Both the position numbers and the translations under genes were made by a program. The notes beneath the pieces are model-generated. The model saw nothing but the letters and a program-made list of their open reading frames with translations. It did no database searches and had not been told where the DNA came from. DNA of 20,000 bases from Craspedostauros australis (lineage: Eukaryota), in assembly GCA_030167865.1 (NCBI GenBank), contig JALAGF010006677.1, forward strand, positions 55,409 through 75,408. Reading direction: 5' to 3'. Below are positions 5,625 to 20,000 of this stretch, in pieces (position 1 is the stretch's first letter; every line of letters starts with the position of its first letter).

Positions 5625-8600
5625 ATGGGGCGTCCACCGGGTTCGAAGCGGTACATCCGCGAAGATGCCAAGCAACCGGCTGCATCACCGGCAGCAAACG
5701 GAAAAGGAGGAAACGGTGGCGGAGGAAGGAGTGTTGCGCAAGACAAGGAGACCTATCCTCGAAGAAACCCTCGCTTGGGAACCAACTTTCAAACGAAGGT
5801 GCCAAGCTGTGTTGGCGGCAGCAGCTCTGCCACCGACGCAGATCAGGATGAAGGAGGACGCAGACCAGCGCCGGATCTCATGTCAGGAACGCACCCCTTT
5901 CGAACGGCGGAGGAGATGGATGTCATGAACGATGGCGTTGCTTCCAAGAGTGAGTGCAACCTACGAAACCGTTGAAGAAACGAAAGACAACCCAAGCATG
6001 GGAACGATGTCGTCTCGAACCATCATCATCATCATGATGGCTGTGACGACGTGGAAGGAGCAGCCCGTCCAAACGAGTGAGACGAATCATTCTCAAAGCA
6101 GATCATATCACATGCATGCGTGCAGCGACAGCCAATCCCTCGGCACAGGAGATGCTCCAAAGCAGATCCGTGCACAAGCGAACCTATCCATCACTTGCAA
6201 AGGATTGGTCATGATGAAGCATGCCACATCATCCAATCCAACTCAACCAAGTGACCGAGGGATCATTCTGCGAAGCAAGGGATTGGCTCGGCAGTACCAT
6301 GCATGGGAGAGACGGAAACTGCCGAAAGGATGGAGTTCGTGATGCTGCCAATCGATCCGTTCGCGCAGCTATCGCCCCCCTGCGGCCAAAACGTTGACTT
6401 CACTCACACTTGCCATCTTTGTTTGGACCATTGCTTGAACATGAACGGAATACCACCTTCCACACTTGCTCGCCTGCTTGCCGCACCATACTCACCATCC
6501 TCGCCTCCATCTCCTTCCATCATTCCATGCGGAACACCTGCTCTCAAAGCCAACGCAACAGGATCCTCTCCAGCCGGCACAAGAAGGACAACAGCGGACG
6601 AGGCGCTCAGAGGCATCGTTGTTGGTGATGGTGAACATGGTGGTCGTGTCGCGTGTCGGATTAGTCGACAAAATCAGTCGTCGATTCCAATGACTCAAAC
6701 ACGAACTGGTGGCATCCTCACACATTCCGCTGAAAACCATGTCCATCATCACCGCTTGCCACAACATGTCCACGAAACCTTTCTTTCTTCTTCTTCTTCT
6801 CTTTCGGCTGTAGCAACAACAGCAGCAACAACTGAAAGCGCATCTTCACATTCGAGTGACGGCGGCTTGGATCCAAGCAGACAGTTTGCAAAGTTCGTCC
6901 AACCCCTCTTCCAATCTTTCGACAGCCAACCAACACGAAGCGCTCATGATGTGACGGAAAGCGTGCAGCACATGATACGGCTGCATGCGCAAGCAACTCC
7001 AGCCAAGCGTAGTCGAGGTCCACGCGGTCGCAAGCGTAACGTGTGGGAGACCCAGCCGAAGTCCAATGGGATCGATGATCTGGAACAAGTGTGGCGACAG
7101 AAGCGAAGGCGGAATCTGCAACATCATCTCAATCAGCAGACCGGCTCGCAGGAGGATGACAGCTCCGCGCTGGCCTACTTGTGCGCATCGCATGGGGGTG
7201 ATGCGACGCAGGCAGAGCTTGCCACCATGGTACAGCTATTGGGAGGAAAAGGTAAGCATCTGGCGTGCACCCGTCCGTGTGTCTGAAGTCTGCTCCAACA
7301 ACTTTGGTTTTGTGACACTCTCTTTGAGATGGAAGGGGTGCGAGAATTAGAGTGTGTGCCCTATTCATTCTTCTGCAACGCACACCCACATGCGTATGTT
7401 ACTGGCATTCGTCCACATATTCACCTCCTCTGCGCTTCGTTCATATATTCCTTCATTCCTTCATCCATCTCGAGCAGCATCCAAAACGAGGAAACTACGG
7501 GAGAGGAGGCGCTGGGACGAAGGAATCAAGTTGCCACTCACATCGTCGGAGTCATGGAGAATACGTTACGACAATCACCACGAATCATTCTTGGGGCAGG
7601 TGCAGGAGGATGGCGCGTCTCCCAGATATCGTGCTTGGCCCACTGGGAAGGCTCAGGCAGGGACGGACTCTTTCTTCATGGATATGGAGTCGGCGGATGC
7701 AGAGGAAAGGAAGGGCGCGTGGAGATCAGTGCATGCATTCGGAGCAGCGCTGGAGCACCAATTGAACGATGAGTCCACCGCGTCTCAGCAGAAGCCGTTC
7801 CTTTCCACAGCCATGACGTACATACAGACAGCCCGCGATTTGCCCATTCCAGAATCCTGCTTTGGAACAAATCACGTCATGGTGGAAGAAGTGGCATCCT
7901 GCATGCATTCCATCCTCGATCGCATCGACGACCTACGCGATGCCCGATGCCGAATACTGGACATGCTGTACGACGAAGACTGCGAAGGAGTTGATGTGGA
8001 TGCTCTTCAAAAGTGCATGAACCAAAACATCAAGTCACTCCCACTCCATCTCGATGAGGAACACGCCATCACGCAGTTTTGCGACTCCGTGAAGACCTGG
8101 GAACGCAAGGTAGCAGCAACACTTGATGCAAAGCAATCCACAGGCAAAGGAAAGTCGTCGAACAAGACGGAGAGAGACGATTTGGGAAACGCTCAACGGT
8201 TGCTGGCAGAAGCGCGTATGCACGCCTTTCGTTCAAAAGCCGTGGTGCAGCTCGAATCGAGGGTGGAGAAGGCCTGCAAGATCCGAGATAGAATCAACGA
8301 ATGGGACATCGCCTGCAATATTAGCAGCGGCAACAACGTCAACAGCAGCAACGGCAATAGTAACAGCAACAAATGGTCCATCAAAAACATCGCCGGTGTT
8401 ATCCGGGAGGCCAATCGATTGAAATTCATGTTCCCCGTGCTCAGTAAGCTCACCCAGATGCATAGAGAATGCGAATGCTGGATCGACCGAGCCAACATCG
8501 CCATCCGGTCCAGAATATCGCTGTCAGAAATCAAGCAACTGGTGGCGCGTGGTCAGGAAATGCCCGTCGACGTCTCGGACTACATCGAAAAGCTCGTGGC

Positions 8601-11600
8601 CCGAGCAGACGACGCCGACGAATGGATAAGCCATCTGGATGGTGTCGTGCCCGTGTCGAAATTCAACACCCAGAATGCCAAGATCCTGATATGGATGCAG
8701 GAAGTTCGTAAGGCTCTGAATGATGGTTCACACGGCGTCCTCCACGAAATGGCATCCAAGGGGAGCAGAATACCTGTCGAAGTCGACCTCGTCAAGTTGC
8801 TCCAGGCAGAACTCGATGCCAGGAGCTGGACAGGCAAGGCGAGGAAATGGATTCCAACAGAAGGCGCTGAAGGCGTCGTGTACCGCAGAGGCAAAATCGA
8901 CGATCTGAGGGATCACATCACGAAAGCGGATACCATCCGCGATCGGCTGCCCCTGCCAACCTCCATCCGTTCGAAGTGGACGATGGATGGAGAGGAGGAG
9001 CTGTGCGCGATCATAGACGCAGCAGACGAATGGTACGAGAAGCACCAAGCCTTTCTGGAGGGCGACAACCGAAGGGCGCGGCGGAGGCACCGGTTGTCCA
9101 TCACGAAACTGAAGGAGATCAGCCAAGAGCTGAATGACATTTTTGTGAATGTGGGCAACATCGGCATGAAAGTTACCAGAATTCAAGCGCAAGCCGAGGC
9201 CTGGTGCAATGAACATTCTTCGGTGCTCACGGCGTGCGGTATCATGCCGGCCAATATCGCCATGGACAGCAACGACGGTAAGGAGAAGGACATCTCCAGC
9301 AACAACAACGGCAACAAGGTCAGCGTCGATGAAATTTCAACCGCCGTCACGTCTGCCGCATCGGACCTTCCTGTGGATTTGGACGAGGCGATGGAACTGG
9401 AGGCAATCTTAAAGAATGTCAAGGAGTGGCAGCAAACCTCGTCCATCTTGGCACCCCTTCGCGCCAACAAGCGGCAAGGCAAGATTTCCCGGCAGCGTTT
9501 CACCATGCAGGACCTGGAGGATGCAATCGACCAAGCACCTTCTCTTCCCGTCAACACGGTGGAAGAAGTTGGTCGCCTTCAAGAGCGATTGCATGCCATT
9601 GCTCAATGGAAGGAAGCCGTTGGTGAACAGTTCAAGAAGCTTCCCAGGGGCTTCGATCAGCTCAGAGAGGCCATCAACGATACTTTTGGGTCAGCTCATG
9701 ACTTCGACCAAAGCAAGGTGTGCACGCCAAGTGACAAGGCTGCTACTGCTGCTGCTACTGCTGACAACATGGAGACACAGGACGCTTCTCTCAAATCTAC
9801 CCGTGCCCCCGAAACAGCAACAGAAGCAGCATCATCAGCGGCAGTGACCGCGACTGTGACAAATGCCGAAAACAACGTCAACAGCGCCAATGGCAACAGC
9901 AGCGGCAACACAACCACTGACGACATGGAGACCAGCAATGGTGAAGGTGACGACGATGACGACGACGGTGATGGGGCTGGCGAGACCAATGTGCACAGCA
10001 TGATCCGTTCGCTTGTTGATGGCAGCTATCAAACTTCTGTGACAACAGTCGAGAGCGATGCCATCGAACTCCTGGAGAATGTGTCCAACTGGTGCATCCG
10101 ATCGCTCAAGTACTTGAATTCACCGCGTGAGATCTTTGACAAGCGCTACTTTGGTGCGTTCGATCGATTCGTCAAGGAGGGCAAAGCTCTGCTCAAGAAG
10201 TCCAAGAGCTCCATCGGAAATGATGGGAAGAAATCTGGCAACTGCAACGGTGCTGACAACGGCCTTGCGACAGAAGCATTCGCGCAAGAAACCAAGCTCC
10301 GCGAGAGCTGGGGTGCAATCTTGGATGATCAGCTCAAGCGGTTGGCGCATTTGGATGCGGAACGAAAGAAGTTCGTCATCTGGTGCAAGGTTGCCAGCCA
10401 AAGGATGGCCGACGTCAAACGTCTCACCATCGAGAGGCTGCGAGACCTCGACACCGCAAGTCGCGATTTCCCAGCAGGTATGTAAGAAGTGACATTGTGG
10501 AGATTGTAAGGGCCTGGTGGTCGGGTGGTATGATTATTCTTGTTGTGATATTTGTGCAGTTTGGAAAATGGGATGAGAATCCAACATCCTGCAGTTCTGG
10601 ACGTCATTCTCATCAGCTCACTCTTCTTGTATGTGTTGGTACCATACGATGCTGTATCTTGCCTACTACCACTCCCCCACTGCTCCACAAATACCGGTGC
10701 GGAATTCGTTTGATTCATTCAGTCACTGATATCGTGCAAAAGGTTCGCGCGCTTTCTGTCAAGGCAACTGCGTGGATCAACAAGGCAAAATCCTTGCTCG
10801 AAAGCGACGACAAGATGTCCATATACGACGCAAAGATCATCTTGGAGGCTGGAGAGAAGCTGAAGGTCAAATCGGCGGAACTGGAGACGCTGCAGGCCGC
10901 ATTCAAGGAAGTCCGCGCGTGGTCAACTCGATTTCGAAAGTGCAACCTCGAGGATGACTCTCCCGATATGGCCGAGATCCAGTCCTTGATCGCGGAACAC
11001 GACAAGCTGAAGCTGGTGATGCCAGACGAACTGGACGAACTCAAGCAGGCCATGAAGGTCTATTGCGTGTGCCGACGATCGCACGAGGGCTTCATGATTG
11101 GATGCGATCAGTGCGACGAGTGGTACCACGGTGCGTGCATCGGGATTACAGAATCGAGAGCGGATCGATATGAAAAGTTCGTCTGTATGCGATGTTCCGT
11201 CAAGAAGGTATTCACCACAAGCTGCACAAACGCCGTGAGCATCGTGCGGAAGTGGACAAGCTGGAAAGAGTTGAAGAAACGCCGGCAGGCGGAGGCGCAA
11301 CGGCATCAACGCAAGACACGGAAGGAGATGAAGGACATCGAAACCATGAAGAAGAACTTGGAAGACGCCGAGGCACAACTAGTCGCACTGTCGCGAAGAA
11401 TAGAAATGAGCGAAGGGGAACCAAACACACCACAATCCGCGGGACCGGCAGAGGTAGTAGTGCAGCTGGCTGTCCCGCCAGCGAGTGAGCCAATGATCGT
11501 GGGCGAGCCTGATACAGGAAAATTGACATCACCACCACTGCCGCCACCGCAGACAACAAGCGCAGGTGACGCAGCGCTTGCCCTTGTGCCAGCACAGCAG

Positions 11601-14600
11601 AGCAATTGTCAAGTCGCCCCGCAGGTTGCACAAGGCTGCCACGGGAGCGCCACGATCATGACGCCTGCAGAAGCAACGAAGGGCAGCGTGCAAGCGCCAG
11701 ACGAGATTCAATCATCGCCAGGAACGGCAGCAGAAGCCGCTGCGACTGCAAATGGCGTAGCGTCACTGACGACCATGGCACCGACTCCGGCCAAAGCCGC
11801 AGCGGCACCGGAACTCGTGGGATCACCAACAGCAACAGATCCACAGGCAGTAGCAGCCGCTGCTGTAGATGGAGCTGTAGTCGGAGGTGCAGCGCCGACA
11901 ACAACGCTGGCACCATCACTAACAACAACAACAACAACATCATCGCCATCAACAGCAGCAGCGAAGGCAGAGACAACGGCATCTCCTGACAAAGCAAATA
12001 TCCAAGTTAAAGTAAACGACGCGCCATCAGCACCAAAAACTCTGAAGGAGCTGAAGAAGGAACAAGCGACGTTGGAAAAGAAATTGGAGAAGCTGAAGAA
12101 GAAGCGAGCAGACAGCATCAAACGACTAGCTGACTACGAAAAGATGAGCGAGGGTGCGAGAGCGAAAGAAACCGATGAGGACAAGAACGCTGCAGCTATC
12201 CGCAGATGGTGCATCCGTGTGCGATCTCTCGTCCTCATCCCGTCATCCACGGAGCTCGTGGAGGCGGCACGTCCACTGCAGAATGGAACTCTCTCTGGCG
12301 CGATGCTCATGGTGATGAGCGACTCGCTCAAACTCGGAGTGTCACGTTTTGCTGACGTGAAGATGATGCTAAATTGGTTCAAGTGCATCTGCTGGAGTTC
12401 GATGACGATGTCCGTCCTCACTAGGATGCCAACACTGGCCGAAGCCAACAGGATCATTTCGCTGGCCTCCTCCCTCCAGCTCCCCGACGAAAGAGCTCTG
12501 CGAACTCTGAAATCTATCGTGCAGCGAGTCAACTACTGGCACCAACGGGCATCGAAGGCAATCGCACCGAAGGGCGGATCCACGAAGTCCATCAACATGG
12601 TTCTGCTTCGGCAGCTCATGACGGATTACTCGGCGTTGCCCATCGCCCTACCCGACATCAGCAGATTCGAAATGGCGGTCAATGACAGAGGCGCTCGGTA
12701 TTGCATCTGTGGTGGACCGAAGAATGGCACAGCAATGATCGGATGCAAGAAGTGCAGATCTTTGTATCACGCCAACTGCATTGAATCGCACAAGGGCAGT
12801 GCGGTCAAGAACGCAAAGGAATGGATTTGTTACGGCTGTGCGGGACAGAAGATGCCTTCGATGAAGATTCCAAGGCCAGACATCTTCCCACCGCAAGACG
12901 AGCCAGACTTCAAGTTCGACGCCGCGAAGATCGATTGGACCATGCTGCATGCACCGAACCCTACCGAACTGTGGCCGCCATTTGGGTTGTTTGGAGCCGA
13001 GAAGGCGGTCGAAGCCCTTGGTCACGATGCCTCCAGATACCCGGATGATATTGCGGTGCTGCATGAGAAAGCCGTTACCAGCGATGAATCTCCTAGCATC
13101 CGGCTTTCGGAAGGATCAGTGCCGCTATGCCTCGTTGTCAACCCACACGGAAACAGCCCACAGCGCCAACAGAATCAACAACAGCCTACGCAGCAACAGC
13201 CGCAGCAACAACAACAGTCGCATATTCCAATAGCAGCTGCGGCGCACTCAGTCCATCCGACGGTGAGAGTGCTAACTCCGCCAGCAGCTACGCCAGTGCT
13301 GCCAATCTCAGTGGCACGAGTAGCTGTGCCGCGAGGGGGAGCGTTGGTTGGGGCACCACACGCAGTCGCAACCCAGCTGCCAGTTGTCACGTCGACGATC
13401 GTCCAAATGACGGCATCATCATCTGCAGCAGCAGCATCAACCATTGCAGGGGCAGTAGTTGCGACACCAGTGCCAGCAGCCGTACCAACGGTACGAGCAG
13501 CTTCAGGTGTGGTAGCAACCCCACCAGGACCAACAGTATCAGCCGTGCCAACAGCGATGCCAAGGCTTCAACTTTCTGCCACACAGGCACAGCCACTGCA
13601 CCTGCAGATGAGAGTTGCGCAACCACCAGAGGCAGTGAAAAGCGATGCGTTCACTATCTCCCTCGCCACAAAGGCGGCTCAACCAATCCAGCCTCCCTTG
13701 CCCACGACAAACCAAACCCAAGGCCAGACCATCGGATCCACATGGGTCCAAATCAGATCTCCTGGCAACGCGGCACCGCCAACCTTGACCCCTCCGAACA
13801 TCGCAGTCGTGAACGTGCCGGCATCGGGTGCGAGCCCGCAGGTTGTCCGCCAAACACAGGCCGCCCCGGTAGACTACGTGAAGGCAACCAGCGCACTTCC
13901 AGCGCCTGTTCCTGCTACCGCAGTAGCTGCGGAGACTGCCGCAGCCAGTCGCAGCCGGCACATACTTACAGCTGCTGCTCCGGAAGTTCATGGGGGTGCT
14001 GTTGCTGCTGGAGCGAGAGTGAATTTGAAGGCTGACTCCGAGCAATCATCAAGATTGGCAACGACAGCAACACAACCACCAACAGCCATGGAGATCGATA
14101 CGAGCAATGGCGGCCCAGTTTCACAAGGTCCCCTGGTCACTTCTCCGGGTGTTGCCAAGGAAGATGGTGAAGTGAATGAGTTGGCGGTAAACCCATTCAC
14201 CGCACCAGTGGATAATTCTATCGGCACCGTCACAGATATTATCACAGCAGACAAGACACAGCCGGAAGGCACCCTGCAGCACCAGCGACAACTGAAGCCG
14301 GAAGACTCCGACGTTTACACAGCACAGCAGATCTCAAACACTAGTACGAATGGCGATGTCGGTCTGCGCAGGCCATTGCAATCTGCAGCATGTCCGCTGT
14401 CGGATGACATGCCTATGCTAACAAACGGGTGCAATGTGGTCCACGATCAAATGGATGTGGACTGTCGTGAGATCGAGCCTGCGGGCACCCAGAATCCAAC
14501 CACGCCGCCGATGGATGTGAAGTGCGTTGCATGCAAGGTTGACGATCTCACGGAGGGGAGCATCATCACCGCAACGGGAGCGGTGACGAGTACAACAACG

Positions 14601-14822
14601 TCATCAGCCTCGAACGACAGCAACGACCTCAGCGTGGATGAGACCGAAAGCAGAATGAACGTTGACAACGAGACTGCATCACACGGTCAGTACCACAACC
14701 AGCAACTGGCCGGAACGACCGAAGCCAACGGCGTCGCAGGACAGGCATCCGTCGTGTCGCTGCAGCTACCGCAGGTTCTGCCAGGTGTTGTGGTGGCCAC
14801 CAAGACGAACCATGGGATTTAG
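5625..14822 (+). CDS. Large (~2700 aa) chromatin-associated protein: ELM2-like motif, PLU-1-like helical region, two PHD fingers, low-complexity tail. Proposed exons 5625-5949, ~6574-7251, 7478-10477, 10723-14822
   Basis: Phase-consistent introns: 7252 GTAAGC..CAG 7477 and 10478 GTATGT..TTCAG 10722 (both phase 1). The first intron, 5950 GTGAGT..TCCTCTCCAG 6573, is less certain (alternative AG at 6561). Summed exons = 8103 nt (2701 codons). ELM2-like 'PRLGTNFQTKVP' at 5769-5804. Recurrent W..kA..l / i..L...g..lpv helical repeats resemble KDM5 PLU-1. Confidence 0.75.
11061..11195 (+). other. PHD finger 1
   Basis: YCVCRRSHEGFMIGCDQCDEWYHGACIGI...FVCMRC: C4HC3 pattern with Y, M and W at the aromatic-cage positions of H3K4me3-binding PHDs. 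Confidence 0.92.
12699..12839 (+). other. PHD finger 2
   Basis: YCICGGPKNGTAMIGCKKCRSLYHANCI...WICYGC: C4HC3 pattern, with L in place of the cage W. Confidence 0.88.
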
Positions 14823-15262
14823 AATCGGGAGGTGAATTTCGCACTGTTTCTTCACATTCGTGCGCATGTTGGTGCCTTTTTCCAACACGGTTCCATAGAA
14901 ATACGAGCTAGAATACTACTACCAGTATGTATGCGGTGATCTTCTCATCTTCTTCCTGAACTCTCGTAGCTTGTACATCGGCGACGACAAGGAAGAAGAG
15001 TCGCAGTCCCACGGTATGAGGACGCCTGTTCTCAGTATGTTGCGGTAGCGTGTGCAACATCATGTTTAGCTCATGTTGCTTCGTCATACAAAACGTCTCC
15101 TTGCATCAACAGCATCACGATACACATGGCCATGCGGCTGCCAAGTCGTCACAGGAGCTGCATCTTCTGCTCCATCCACTATCAGCCGCACGCACGGACT
15201 ATCGTCAAGGTGCACCGTTCTTGCATGGAATACTCGTATGTGCTCTAGAGTAGTATTATGCG

Positions 15263-16904
15263 TTATGCTATCGACGTCTCTCTCACTTCCGCAGGTTCCA
15301 CGAGAGAATACTCGTGATTGACAAAGTCTCTGTCGAACATGAATGACCGATATGTGTCTGGTCCGCCAGGGAATCCCCCTTTTCGCAAGCCGTTGGCAGC
15401 ATCGTAGATCTCCTGCATGGCGTTGGAAGCGTACGTAATTAGGATGAAGATGGGGTGAGGAATGGCGGACAATGGCGCAAAAGCCAGGGGAAACGACAGC
15501 AAGCAACGACAGCGACAACAAAGACAATGACTCCATTGTGCCCACAAGAACCACCACCACAAGCGTACGTACCTTGTTGACCGAGATGTAACCTTCCATG
15601 TCTGCGTCGTAAATCCCCGCCGTCTTCGCCAGGTCTCTGCAATAATCCCATTGGGCGTTGCCCAAGTAATGCGTGTCTTGGATGCGGCCGTTGGGCACGC
15701 CCCCGCAGCTGACAGAGTCCTGTTGCGCCGCATTCAGACGATCTTCCACAGATGGCAAGACCGATGCAGCGGTCCATGTGGCGCACACGGCCTCGGCTTG
15801 CAATTCGAAGAAGGGGAAGGGAAGGATGGAATGCGGCAAGCCGACGAATGCCAAATTGGGATGGTGGGCGTGCCACAGCTGTCGGTAAAGAGGTTTGACA
15901 CGGCGTTCGCCGTCTGGGAATTGGACGTCCAGGTTGCTGTCGTCGTTGAGGAATGGGAATTCGTAGTCGTATCCGGAACACATAATGATGCGGTCGATTG
16001 TGTTCGGTGGGATCGTGATGCCGGTCTCCTTGTCACCAAACTGTATGGAGCCGTCTTGCAGCACCTGCGTCGTTTTTGGGACCCACGCGCCATTGTCCGC
16101 GGTCTCTGGTTGTCCATCCACCAGCGGCGGACAGGTGGAATCGGATAAGTAGACGTAATCGGCGTGCTCCATAATCTCACGAGTCAGGTCCGCTCCACTG
16201 GCACGGGCGCCGATGCAAAGGACCGTTTCGGATTGGAACATCGCGGGGTCGTCGTATTCGATGGAGTGCATGACCTTGCCCTGGAAGTATTGGTCCAGTC
16301 CTGGAATGCGCGGGCTAGATGCTTTGGCATAATGGCCGTTGCAAATCAAGACGGCGTCAAACACATCGCTCTGCACATTGGAATCTTCTTCGCCAGTACT
16401 CGTCAGCTGTTGTTTTCCATGTTCATGTCCATGCTGCTGGTCTTGCTGCTGGTCTGTCTCGCTGACCGTCCATGAGAGTCTGATCTTGGGCCATGTCTCT
16501 GTGTCTGGTGACAGCGCCGACGGTTGGTCTGACAGGACAGTCAGCTGACGCACGGAATGGCCATGATGAATGTACCGCCCCAGCCGGAAGGAATCGCGGT
16601 AGCTCTCCAGATAGCGCGCAACATCGCGATGCGTGACGAAGCTGCCGCCATCCTGCGCTTCGAGCCAGGGCAGTTCGCGGTACCCCATGATCTCCTTGGG
16701 CAAGTTGGTGCGCAGACCTCGGTAGACGGGATCGCTGGTCGAATTGGAGACGTAGTTCCAGACGCCGCCCGTCTTGCGCGCATTCTTTTCAAAGACCTTG
16801 GGAGATGCCAGGCCGCTGCGCGAGACGACGCGCGCCGCCGCCAGACCGGATGCCCCGGCGCCGATTATGGCGATCTTCGGCTGCTGCGATGATGTCCGCA
16901 TCAT
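15263..16904 (-). CDS. Flavin-containing monooxygenase (class B FMO); exons 16904-15573 and 15412-15263, 493 aa
   Basis: FAD motif GAGASG, GGVW, 'YRGLRTNLPKEIM', 'FDAVLICNGHY', FMO motif FQGKVMHSIEY, NADPH motif GARASG, and 'CSGY'. A phase-0 intron 15572 GTACGT..TGCAG 15413 joins VNK|EIYDAA. Confidence 0.92.
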
Positions 16905-16920
16905 CGCTGACAGCTTTCAC

Positions 16921-17066
16921 TGTACTTCTTACCTCTTTACTAATCGTATTAATCAAATACTGGTCGGAGATTGTCCTCGGACAACTCACAATAAAACAAC
17001 AAGAGCTCCGACCAGGGCACGCAACAACGGGCCAATCAGTCTCAGTAGTTACTTGCATGTTTGACA
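16921..17066 (+). repeat. Putative 5' LTR (left end uncertain: TGT at 16921 or TGTC at 16972)
   Basis: Ends in ...TTGACA immediately before the PBS and contains AATAAA at 16990-16995. The 3' LTR is outside the window, so the left end cannot be confirmed. Confidence 0.55.
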
Positions 17067-17080
17067 GATTAAGAGTCGTG
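17067..17080 (+). other. Primer-binding site complementary to the tRNA-Lys(CUU) anticodon arm
   Basis: GATTAAGAGTCGTG. Its reverse complement CACGA-CTCTTAA-TC reads as 5-nt stem strand, CU-CUU-AA loop and 2 nt of the returning stem. Confidence 0.75.
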
Positions 17081-17120
17081 ATATCACCAACAAGCTTATC
17101 ACTATAACACCACTTCTACC

Positions 17121-18497
17121 ATGACGAGAACGATCAACAACAAAGCAGTAGCCGGATTCATCAAGGAGCTTGTCGGGCTGAACGACCAACAGATGTCTTT
17201 CATCACAAGCACTCTTGGACGCATCGACAATGCCATCCGCCTCACTGACCAAGAAATCGTGGACTCTTTGGTTCACTCCCCATCTCTCAACGCCGTCAAC
17301 ATCGGTAACGTCATGCGCATCTTCGAATACGCACGTCACAACGCCGTCGACGACACAACGAACTGGGAAGCCATCCATGACTTCAACGAAGGTCGCAACT
17401 ACAAGCTACCAACAATCGACTCGTCCGTGGCAATCTCGACGACCAAACTTCGCCTCGAGATGGACATGAAGCAAGCGGCCGCAGCCGTGCAAGCCAACGA
17501 GATGGTTGTACGCTCGCCGCAACGCGGAGGCGCAAGCACGCGCTCTCCATCAACACCTACCAACTGGCGCTATGACAAGGTCTCCATCCCAGACCCTCTC
17601 CCTTTCTCCGGTCTGAACGAAGACTGGCGTGATTGGAAGATATCCTTCGAGCGGTCCATGGTGACCACTCGATTCTCCAAGTACATGGACCGGGAGCGTC
17701 CAGCTGGATACGAGCAACACGTCGACCGACAGTTCCATTCGGTCATCAACGCATTGACCTATCAGGGGGACGCCGATTTCCTTGTCTCAGCTCACCGCAA
17801 CAGTGGACACGATGCATGGCAAGCATTGATTCAGCTCTACGAATCCGAGGAGAATCAGGCGCAAACAGTCGCCGAGCAAGAAGTCTACCTGACCCAGCTC
17901 TCCTTCGACGGATCCGAGCCATTCACCAAGTACGTCAACGCGTTTTCCAAATCCCTTCAAGTCATGAAGGACAACGGCAAGGAGATGACGGAAGAGCACA
18001 TCATTGCGCAATTCTTCCGCAACATCCGTGATGAGCGCTACGTAAGCGAGGTGTCTCGTCTCCGCAAGGAGAAGCTCACCTTCGCTGAGATCCGCAAGGA
18101 ACTCATGGAACATGATCGTGTGCTGACCAACATCGAAGCACATCAATCTCCTCGGCGTAACCGTCGACTTCAGACCAAGCAGGGCGGACGCAACGACCGC
18201 AAGCGACCACACGATGGCCAATCCGGCGAACGCAAATCCGCACCCGCATTTCGGCTGTCGGACAGCGTCTTCAGACGCCTCCCAGCCTGCCAACAGGCAC
18301 TCCTTGTGGAGGCCACGCGGTACTACCGCAAGAATGGGAAGAACATCGACGATGAGACCCTCAAGAAACTCAAGCCAGCGGAGTTCGCACAGAACCTCCA
18401 GCTGCCGCTCACACGCAGAGCAGCCAAGCGCGACCGAACCCACGGGACCCCGACTCGCGACGGCAAGAAACGCGGATCATACGGCGACAGCTCTTGA
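17121..18497 (+). CDS. gag: Gag (458 aa) of copia-type element
   Basis: Copia gag-like motifs 'PFSGLNEDWRDWK', 'SGHDAWQALIQLYE' and 'FTKYVNAF', plus a basic C-terminal tail. No CCHC knuckle. Confidence 0.85.
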   Translation: MTRTINNKAVAGFIKELVGLNDQQMSFITSTLGRIDNAIRLTDQEIVDSLVHSPSLNAVNIGNVMRIFEYARHNAVDDTTNWEAIHDFNEGRNYKLPTIDSSVAISTTKLRLEMDMKQAAAAVQANEMVVRSPQRGGASTRSPSTPTNWRYDKVSIPDPLPFSGLNEDWRDWKISFERSMVTTRFSKYMDRERPAGYEQHVDRQFHSVINALTYQGDADFLVSAHRNSGHDAWQALIQLYESEENQAQTVAEQEVYLTQLSFDGSEPFTKYVNAFSKSLQVMKDNGKEMTEEHIIAQFFRNIRDERYVSEVSRLRKEKLTFAEIRKELMEHDRVLTNIEAHQSPRRNRRLQTKQGGRNDRKRPHDGQSGERKSAPAFRLSDSVFRRLPACQQALLVEATRYYRKNGKNIDDETLKKLKPAEFAQNLQLPLTRRAAKRDRTHGTPTRDGKKRGSYGDSS

Positions 18498-20000
18498 CAA
18501 TCAACGACGGGCACACTTCGCCGTCAGTCTGAGATTGCCATCCGTGTCAAGCCCCGCGACTGTAGGGGGGAGACGCGTACAGCTGCAGAGGGACGGCCCA
18601 AGCGTGCACGCATTGTGGAACCCCGAGTGCCGCCGTCGAGCATAACCCACCCGCATGTCGAACACTGTCTTCGCAGGGCAAGAGTGATGGACGGTAGCCA
18701 GGGCTACATCGTATTGGACTCAGGGGCGGACGGCGACATCGTACATGCATCCGGATGGGTGGTGACCCGAAAACACACGCAGACTTTCCAAGCCCGCGGG
18801 GCGACGATGGAGTCACAAATCGAGACCTTCCAGATGGTCGACGCGGTGGCAGCATATGAATCACCCACAGGGGATGTGATTCTGATCAAGGCAAACTTCG
18901 TGGCGCTTGACGAGCACCCAAGGCAGACAGAGTCATTGATGAATACTCATCATATGCGCGCGTCCGGACTGAACGTCTACGATCGCCTCATTCAACACCA
19001 AGGGCAACAGCGCATCGCGTCAGGGGGGATCAGTATACCACTGGCCAATCATGACGGCAACACTCTGCGCATACCCATACGAAAACCGACGGCTCACGAG
19101 CTCGATAACACTACTAAGCATATCACGATATGCGACAGGCACCAACGACTTCGACGTAACAACCAACGGGTTGACTTCGGCGAAGTGTTCAAGCATCTCC
19201 CACAACAGGTGGTTGAGAAGACCATGGCGGCATCAACCCAGCTGGCGGACAAACCGATAGAGGCCGAGTCAAGACTCATCCCACGGCAATACCGTACACA
19301 GCGCGCAGGGATATTGCTACCACACCGACTTCACGGAAGAGTCGACACCGATCCATTCTTTTCCACCATCCAGTCGATCCGACACTACAAATGCTTTCAG
19401 CTGTTCATACACAGCGAATCCAAGCTGATTTGGACCAAGCCACTCCGACGGGAGGCGATGGCGCCAGGGGCGCTAACCGACTTCATCCTCAACGTTGGGG
19501 CACCAGACCTGCTCATTTCCGACAATTCACAAGTGCAGTCGGGCAAGGCATGGAAGGCGGTAACATCCAAGCACATGATCAAGCATTCGTTCACAACGCC
19601 AATGAACCAGAACCAGAACCGAGCGGAACGCGCTATCGGAGACATCAAGCGGCACGCATACCAACTCATTTGGGCGGCATCTGCGCCACTCGAATTCTGG
19701 TGCTACGCGGTACAGCACGCTGTCGACGTTTGGAACTTCACGGCCAAGGCCAGCATCCAATGGAAGACGCCGATCGAACTTGCTCGGGGCAACACACCTG
19801 ACATCTCTATGTTTCGTTTCACTTTCTTCCAACCGGTATGGTTCTTCGAACCGATGACGAAGTTCCCAGCTCATCCCTTCAAGCCAGGATATTTCCTGGG
19901 AATCGCGTGGGATCATGGCGATCCATTTACATACCACATCTGGTCACCGAAGGCCGACGACATCAAGAAAGGCACAGCACTCGTCCGGAACATCGTGAAA
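18498..20000 (+). CDS. pol: Pol (aspartic protease + integrase core; 3'-truncated by window), in frame with gag
   Basis: Translated by hand: stop-free from 18498 to 20000. Protease 'YIVLDSGAD' (DSG 18717-18725). Integrase 'VDTDPFF' (D 19350), 'LISDNS' (D 19521), 'QNRAERAIG' (E 19626), then 'FWCYAV', 'TPDISMFRF' and 'GYFLGIAWDHGDPFTYHI'. Confidence 0.92.

Follow-up and report, generated by a model that had tools for sequence, protein, structure and literature searches.

The window analysed here, a 20,000-nt stretch of DNA, contains at positions 16908-20000 the left part of an LTR retrotransposon that is apparently intact and of Ty1/copia type, resembling the CoDi-like elements of marine protists. 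Right behind its 5′ LTR, at 17067-17080, lies a 14-nt primer binding site (PBS), from which reverse transcription probably starts on a 5′ fragment of tRNA-Lys(CUU). In the proposed mechanism, a tRNA-Lys(CUU) fragment whose 3′ end falls after C40, within the 3′ side of the anticodon stem, would anneal to this site and would then prime minus-strand synthesis that runs into U5. As in the half-tRNA (anticodon-arm) class, which is taken here as copia, Ty5, Osser, Bianca and FunCo1, the PBS is the complement of an internal part of the tRNA ending in the anticodon stem and not of the CCA end. We infer the LTR boundary, the match to a host tRNA and the use of a cleaved tRNA as primer, while the cut, its nuclease and any regulation would be as the likeness to copia and Ty5 suggests. 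The window element adds one more example to a priming mode that is already known, since both non-Met and tRNA-Lys use are already in print, and the more interesting result is the clade-wide pattern, in which related elements carry blocks for several tRNAs.

The element and its surroundings

The window is eukaryotic, with an FMO-like gene (Table 1) and several long ORFs in which PLU-1 and PHD domains are found, and no tRNA genes were found in its 20,000 nt. The 5′ LTR, the PBS and the leader are confined to 16905-17120 because of the position of the FMO-like ATG. The LTR start stands head-to-head with the FMO-like gene, 3 nt from its ATG, and the 5′ UTR and promoter region of this gene have therefore been replaced by the insertion. 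The FMO ORF loses its FMO-like character past about 440 aa, which may be due to an intron or to damage. At 7354-14822, two long ORFs of 1043 and 1479 aa contain the PLU-1 and PHD domains together with AAC/CAG-rich repeats, and the pair looks like one JARID/KDM5-type gene interrupted by an intron or by a change of frame.

Table 1. Coordinates of the features in and next to the element, numbered from the first letter of the window.
Feature	Position	Strand	Description
FMO-like gene	15084-16904	minus	Pfam FMO-like, E 3.3e-36; ATG at 16902-16904
5′ LTR	16908-17066	+	159 nt, TG (16908)...CA (17065-17066); boundaries inferred by homology
PBS GATTAAGAGTCGTG	17067-17080	+	complementary to tRNA-Lys(CUU) positions 27-40
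Palindrome GTGATATCAC	17078-17087	+	perfect, 10 nt; overlaps the last three PBS bases
gag ORF	17121-18497	+	458 aa; TGA stop at 18495-18497
pol	18498-20000	+	same frame as gag, open up to the window end

Within the 5′ LTR, an AATAAA is found at 16990-16995. The gag product matches PF14223 (Retrotran_gag_2) with an E value of 4.5e-07 and 29.9 bits against a cut-off of 27, which identifies it as a copia-type gag. The visible part of pol encodes a protease with a DSGA motif followed by integrase-like sequence; RT and RNase H fall beyond position 20000, and full-length relatives of the element carry RVT_2 (PF07727). The palindrome at the 3′ end of the PBS could be a hairpin, a dimerisation site or a product of chance.

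The primer binding site and its match to tRNA-Lys(CUU)

The stretch 17061-17082 reads TTGACA, then GATTAAGAGTCGTG, then AT, exactly as the original prediction had described it, and no TGG follows the LTR-like end. The PBS lies directly behind the CA and 41 nt ahead of the gag ATG, and the 14-mer occurs once in the window when both strands are considered. Its 10-nt core, ATTAAGAGTC, is also present in a single copy, and was found anywhere in 3 of 200 dinucleotide shuffles of the 20 kb. A check for a canonical PBS gave a sole TGG in 16905-17120, at 16961, inside the LTR, and a CCA-end PBS was therefore rejected; with a PBS at this TGG, the LTR could span no more than about 55 bases. The leader and the LTR have no complementary run longer than 6 nt, which makes Tf1-type self-priming unlikely.

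The 14-mer had also been proposed to be the anticodon region of tRNA-Lys(CUU), and this identification was borne out by tRNA-Lys(ctt) genes called by ARAGORN, which come from viral contigs and not from the host. The PBS is the exact complement (14/14) of positions 27-40 in these genes, which read CACGACTCTTAATC, and the pairing takes in the 5′ side of the anticodon stem, the loop with CUU and two bases at the start of the stem's 3′ side. A scan of viral contigs for the 14-mer gave 86 loci, 80 of which were given to ARAGORN, and a tRNA-Lys(ctt) was called over the 14-mer in three of the 80 (L025, L033 and L051). A script applied to all 86 loci found four tRNA-Lys(ctt) genes that hold the 14-mer, as well as two tRNA-Leu(aag) genes that carry it on the other strand. 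The arm in L025 and L033 is CACGA-CTCTTAA-TCGTG, closing as CACGA/TCGTG. The source of the matching genes is viral or phage contigs (a giant-virus MAG for L025), and they show solely that such an arm exists in nature. Most of the 86 occurrences lie outside tRNAs, so the 14-mer word is not diagnostic by itself. At L008, L042, L046 and L021/L023, also on viral contigs, the 14-mer adjoins T-arm-like sequence with no full tRNA called, and these loci are possible phage attachment sites, in which the 3′ portion of a tRNA-Lys gene would be duplicated.

The original prediction further relied on the self-consistency of the site as an anticodon arm. The reverse complement of the PBS is indeed CACGA-CTCTTAA-TC. 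However, this argument is weak alone, because loosely defined patterns that resemble an anticodon arm turn up at about 12 per kb, and the weight is carried by the exact tRNA match and the position. A primer ending near position 40, as originally suggested, is supported by the 14/14 match and by the same 27-40 architecture in 13 related loci (see below). The complementarity is limited to these 14 nt and ends at tRNA position 27: the bases past 17080 (ATATCA) misfit the D-arm side of the tRNA in L025 and L033, and on the other side the A at 17066, which precedes the PBS, is unable to pair with G41 of such a tRNA-Lys. For the duplex between the PBS and the tRNA, as unmodified RNA, a free energy of -20.4 kcal/mol is predicted. 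Such tRNAs carry a heavily modified base at position 37, and this modification should make pairing harder; the objection is equally valid for copia itself.

Arm-type blocks in related elements

A protein search returned 14 relatives of the element, with a best identity of 56% and PF07727 (RVT_2) in 10 of the 14, and alignment of these relatives led to 36 loci from marine metagenome contigs. No relatives were found in the set viral_contigs, the prokaryote MAG contigs gave six short fragments, none with an upstream region or the motif, and no tRNA genes were found in the 36 metagenome loci. Because the loose pattern is so common, a strict arm pattern was chosen (G, N, TT, NNN, AG, N, C, NNN, where bases 2 and 10 can form a pair). 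Over the window and the 36 loci (134,241 nt), this pattern has 19 matches on the element strand vs. 7 on the other strand, and of these 19, 14 stand just ahead of gag, in the window and in 13 of the loci. These 13 are every locus with an identifiable gag-like ORF and upstream sequence; L090 is degraded and shows no block, and L106 has 91 bases upstream only. Ahead of gag in 13/13 loci, the block complements tRNA positions 27-40 and its first base is G, opposite C40 of the tRNA.

The blocks differ in the tRNA that they would select. The block of L087, L089 and L093, GCTTATGAGACT(T/G)A, reads as Met (CAU), and the word of L089 and L093 is found within 57 tRNA-Met(cat) genes among 120 viral loci. 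The block of L091, L092, L094, L095, L096, L099, L101, L104 and L111, GTTTATCAGACCCA, reads as Ile with a C opposite the wobble base. The Ile reading of these nine relatives is less secure than the Met reading: three of 119 viral loci with this word are tRNAs (Ile-gat, Ile-tat and Met-cat), none with the anticodon AAT. L088 carries GATTAACAGTCTTG, with two changes relative to the window site, behind an LTR end TTGACA as in the window, and this block reads as Asn (GUU) or as a decayed Lys site. The Lys-type PBS itself, TTAAGAGT, is absent upstream of gag in all relatives, and the L088 variant is the nearest to it. The presence of a block of the same form in all 13 loci points to anticodon-arm priming by tRNA fragments as the rule in this clade, and suggests that such priming with several different tRNAs is the norm in the lineage.

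A broader proposal is that C40 is the common 3′ end of the 5′ tRNA fragments from which the whole clade primes, irrespective of the tRNA, be it Lys-CUU, a Met-CAU that lacks an initiator-like stem, an Ile tRNA with inosine or perhaps Asn-GUU. We consider this proposal tentative and rather doubtful. The pairing in L089 and L093 can be extended by 1-3 bases into the last bases of the LTR, and a primer end at position 40 is therefore not secure clade-wide. If the proposal is true, it would, together with the mixed PBS types of close relatives, point to one cut at 40/41, blind to tRNA identity and made by a host or element nuclease, and to easy primer switching, with a few substitutions being enough. 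Unclassified tRNA fragments of about 19 nt, termed 'D loop/anticodon', have been described in Phaeodactylum (PMC4247016), and under the same proposal these could come from the same cut, which would tie retrotransposition to the supply of tRNA fragments under nutrient stress. A link between the element and stress-induced tRNA halves is speculation.

The relationships among the elements were estimated with a rough tree of the integrase (26 rows; FastTree on a query-anchored alignment, rooted at the midpoint), which left out loci covering <60% of residues 181-447, among them L093. The window element groups with L113, L087, L088, L089, L090, L097 and L109 with an SH-like support of 1.000, apart from the Ile group, and its group includes the Met and Lys-like elements; PBS types are mixed among close relatives in this tree. 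In L088 the RT is missing between the integrase fragment and the LTR-PBS-gag part, so the two may come from different elements. The mixing of PBS types favours an alternative explanation, in which the PBS is a fossil or a mismatch that was shaped in another host or by a tRNA with a similar arm (e.g., the Asn(GUU)-like reading of L088), does not match the tRNA-Lys(CUU) of the present host, and is not used for priming by this tRNA now. The two-base variant behind the same LTR end in L088 also favours it, indicating that the site drifts or switches. However, the reading frame is open throughout gag and as much of pol as the window shows, apart from one in-frame stop that is a clade trait and not damage, the complement of the loop is exactly CUU, and the whole 14-mer occurs in real tRNA-Lys genes, all of which make a fossil site unlikely.

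The LTR boundary

The window ends inside the integrase and the 3′ LTR lies beyond it; the 5′ LTR was placed via the metagenome relatives. At the left boundary, the LTR start TGACAGCTTTCAC (16908) and that of L087, TGACAGAGTTCAC, have 11 of 13 bases equal, and the L087 LTR start comes after a polypurine tract, AGAGGAG. The order in L087, L089 and L093 is the C-terminus of pol, the polypurine tract, an LTR starting with TG, the arm-type block and gag. At the right boundary, L088 and the window LTR end were aligned by blastn with 82% identity over 39 nt (E 0.006), and the two have ..TACTTG..GTTGACA in common up to the LTR end and GATTAA.AGTC.TGA after it. L096, L101 and L104 are end overlaps and not full LTR pairs, and therefore fix no LTR end directly.

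A different placement of the boundary would move the PBS. If the true LTR end were not 17066, the block would be inside U5 and the PBS would lie further downstream, between 17081 and 17120, a reading to which a boundary placed by homology, with the 3′ LTR outside the window, gives some room. However, the 40 nt past the block contain neither a TGG nor another strict arm pattern, and the similarity to L088 covers the last ~20 bases of the LTR and the block and then fades about a base past the block (17081). The block stands behind a CA end in L089 and L093, where the gag ATG follows 32 and 42 nt past it, respectively; L087 has no CA end, and its gag ATG is 9 nt past the block. A boundary other than 17066 is thus very improbable. 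Least probable of all is a chance match, in which the 14-mer is merely arm-like and the element is primed in some other way, be it on itself, by a different small RNA or from a PBS at another place in the leader: the frequency of the loose pattern and the many 14-mers outside tRNAs on viral contigs would speak for it, but the core that is so rare in shuffled sequence sits here at the one expected site, an arm complement occupies the corresponding position in 13 related loci, and the leader offers neither a TGG site nor self-complementarity beyond 6 nt.

The contigs of L096, L101, L104, L087, L089, L091, L093, L094 and L095 show pol-PPT-LTR-PBS-gag with one LTR, or end overlaps in coding sequence. 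Both layouts resemble circular permutation, for which collapsed LTRs, tandem copies or one-LTR circles may be the source. In L095, two elements with 76% identity are joined.

Relation to known elements

Half-tRNA priming is textbook knowledge for copia. Priming by a half tRNA-iMet was shown experimentally for Drosophila copia and yeast Ty5 (PMC5371799), which belong to the same superfamily as the window element and resemble it in having the PBS on the anticodon stem-loop rather than the CCA end and a 5′ tRNA fragment as the primer, predicted in our case. In contrast to the initiator Met of copia and Ty5, the predicted tRNA of the window element is Lys(CUU).

A tRNA-Lys site was reported for FunCo1, a group of fungal Ty1/copia elements: its PBS, ATTAAGAGTCT, was described as the complement of an internal part of tRNA-Lys (Donnart et al. 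2017, PMC5445492). Comparison of this PBS with window positions 17068-17078 shows 10 of 11 bases to be equal, the last one being G in the window and T in FunCo1, and the FunCo1 PBS as printed begins one base later, opposite position 39 rather than 40 as in the window element. FunCo1 is reported solely from Pezizomycotina fungi (PMC5445492), whereas the relatives of the window element come from marine metagenomes, and the likeness between the two concerns the PBS. In plants, the Bianca lineage uses 1/2tRNA-Ile with inosine at the wobble position (Neumann et al. 2019, PMC6317226). Bianca is alike in its non-Met half-tRNA PBS, and the C opposite the wobble base is also present in the nine window relatives with the Ile-type block; it is unlike the window element in host group and tRNA. 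The novelty that the words on a non-Met primer implied in the original prediction does not stand, given that the tRNA-Lys site of FunCo1 (PMC5445492) and the 1/2tRNA-Ile of Bianca (PMC6317226) were already published.

The window element changes little on its own because its priming mode is already known. Annotation tools that seek CCA-end PBSs only would miss or mis-bound such elements in protist genomes, and relatives that use several tRNAs form a natural series for studying the tRNA cut and primer switching. We found no tabulation of PBS types for diatom-type elements in the literature, and the main text of the diatom CoDi study contains no PBS analysis (PMC2806351). A literature search for the 10-mer returned none on retroelements among the matches listed.

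The diatom CoDi elements of the copia type have LTRs of 153-844 bp, with short ones of 153-163 bp, including 163 bp for Blackbeard (Maumus et al. 2009, PMC2806351). The window element shares with them a short TG/CA LTR, whose 159 nt come close to the short diatom lengths, one stop between gag and pol and relatives in ocean samples, and by the published description of CoDi an assignment to this group is plausible. Identity with Blackbeard itself was rejected, as the LTR primer and the Blackbeard-specific primer given in that study (PMC2806351) are unmatched in the window at up to 3 mismatches.

As in the CoDi layout, gag and pol of the window element are in one frame with a single in-frame TGA between them (context TGA CAA TCA). 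A single gag-pol stop was present in the eight relatives checked (L087, L092, L095, L096, L099, L101, L104 and L111); it is TGA in seven of these, giving the same layout as in the window, and TAA in L087. This arrangement suggests that Gag-Pol may be made by stop-codon read-through in this clade. The gag proteins of the Ile-type elements L092, L095, L096, L099, L101, L104 and L111 start with MG(N/S/T/A), a possible N-myristoylation signal, and the window gag starts with MTRT instead.
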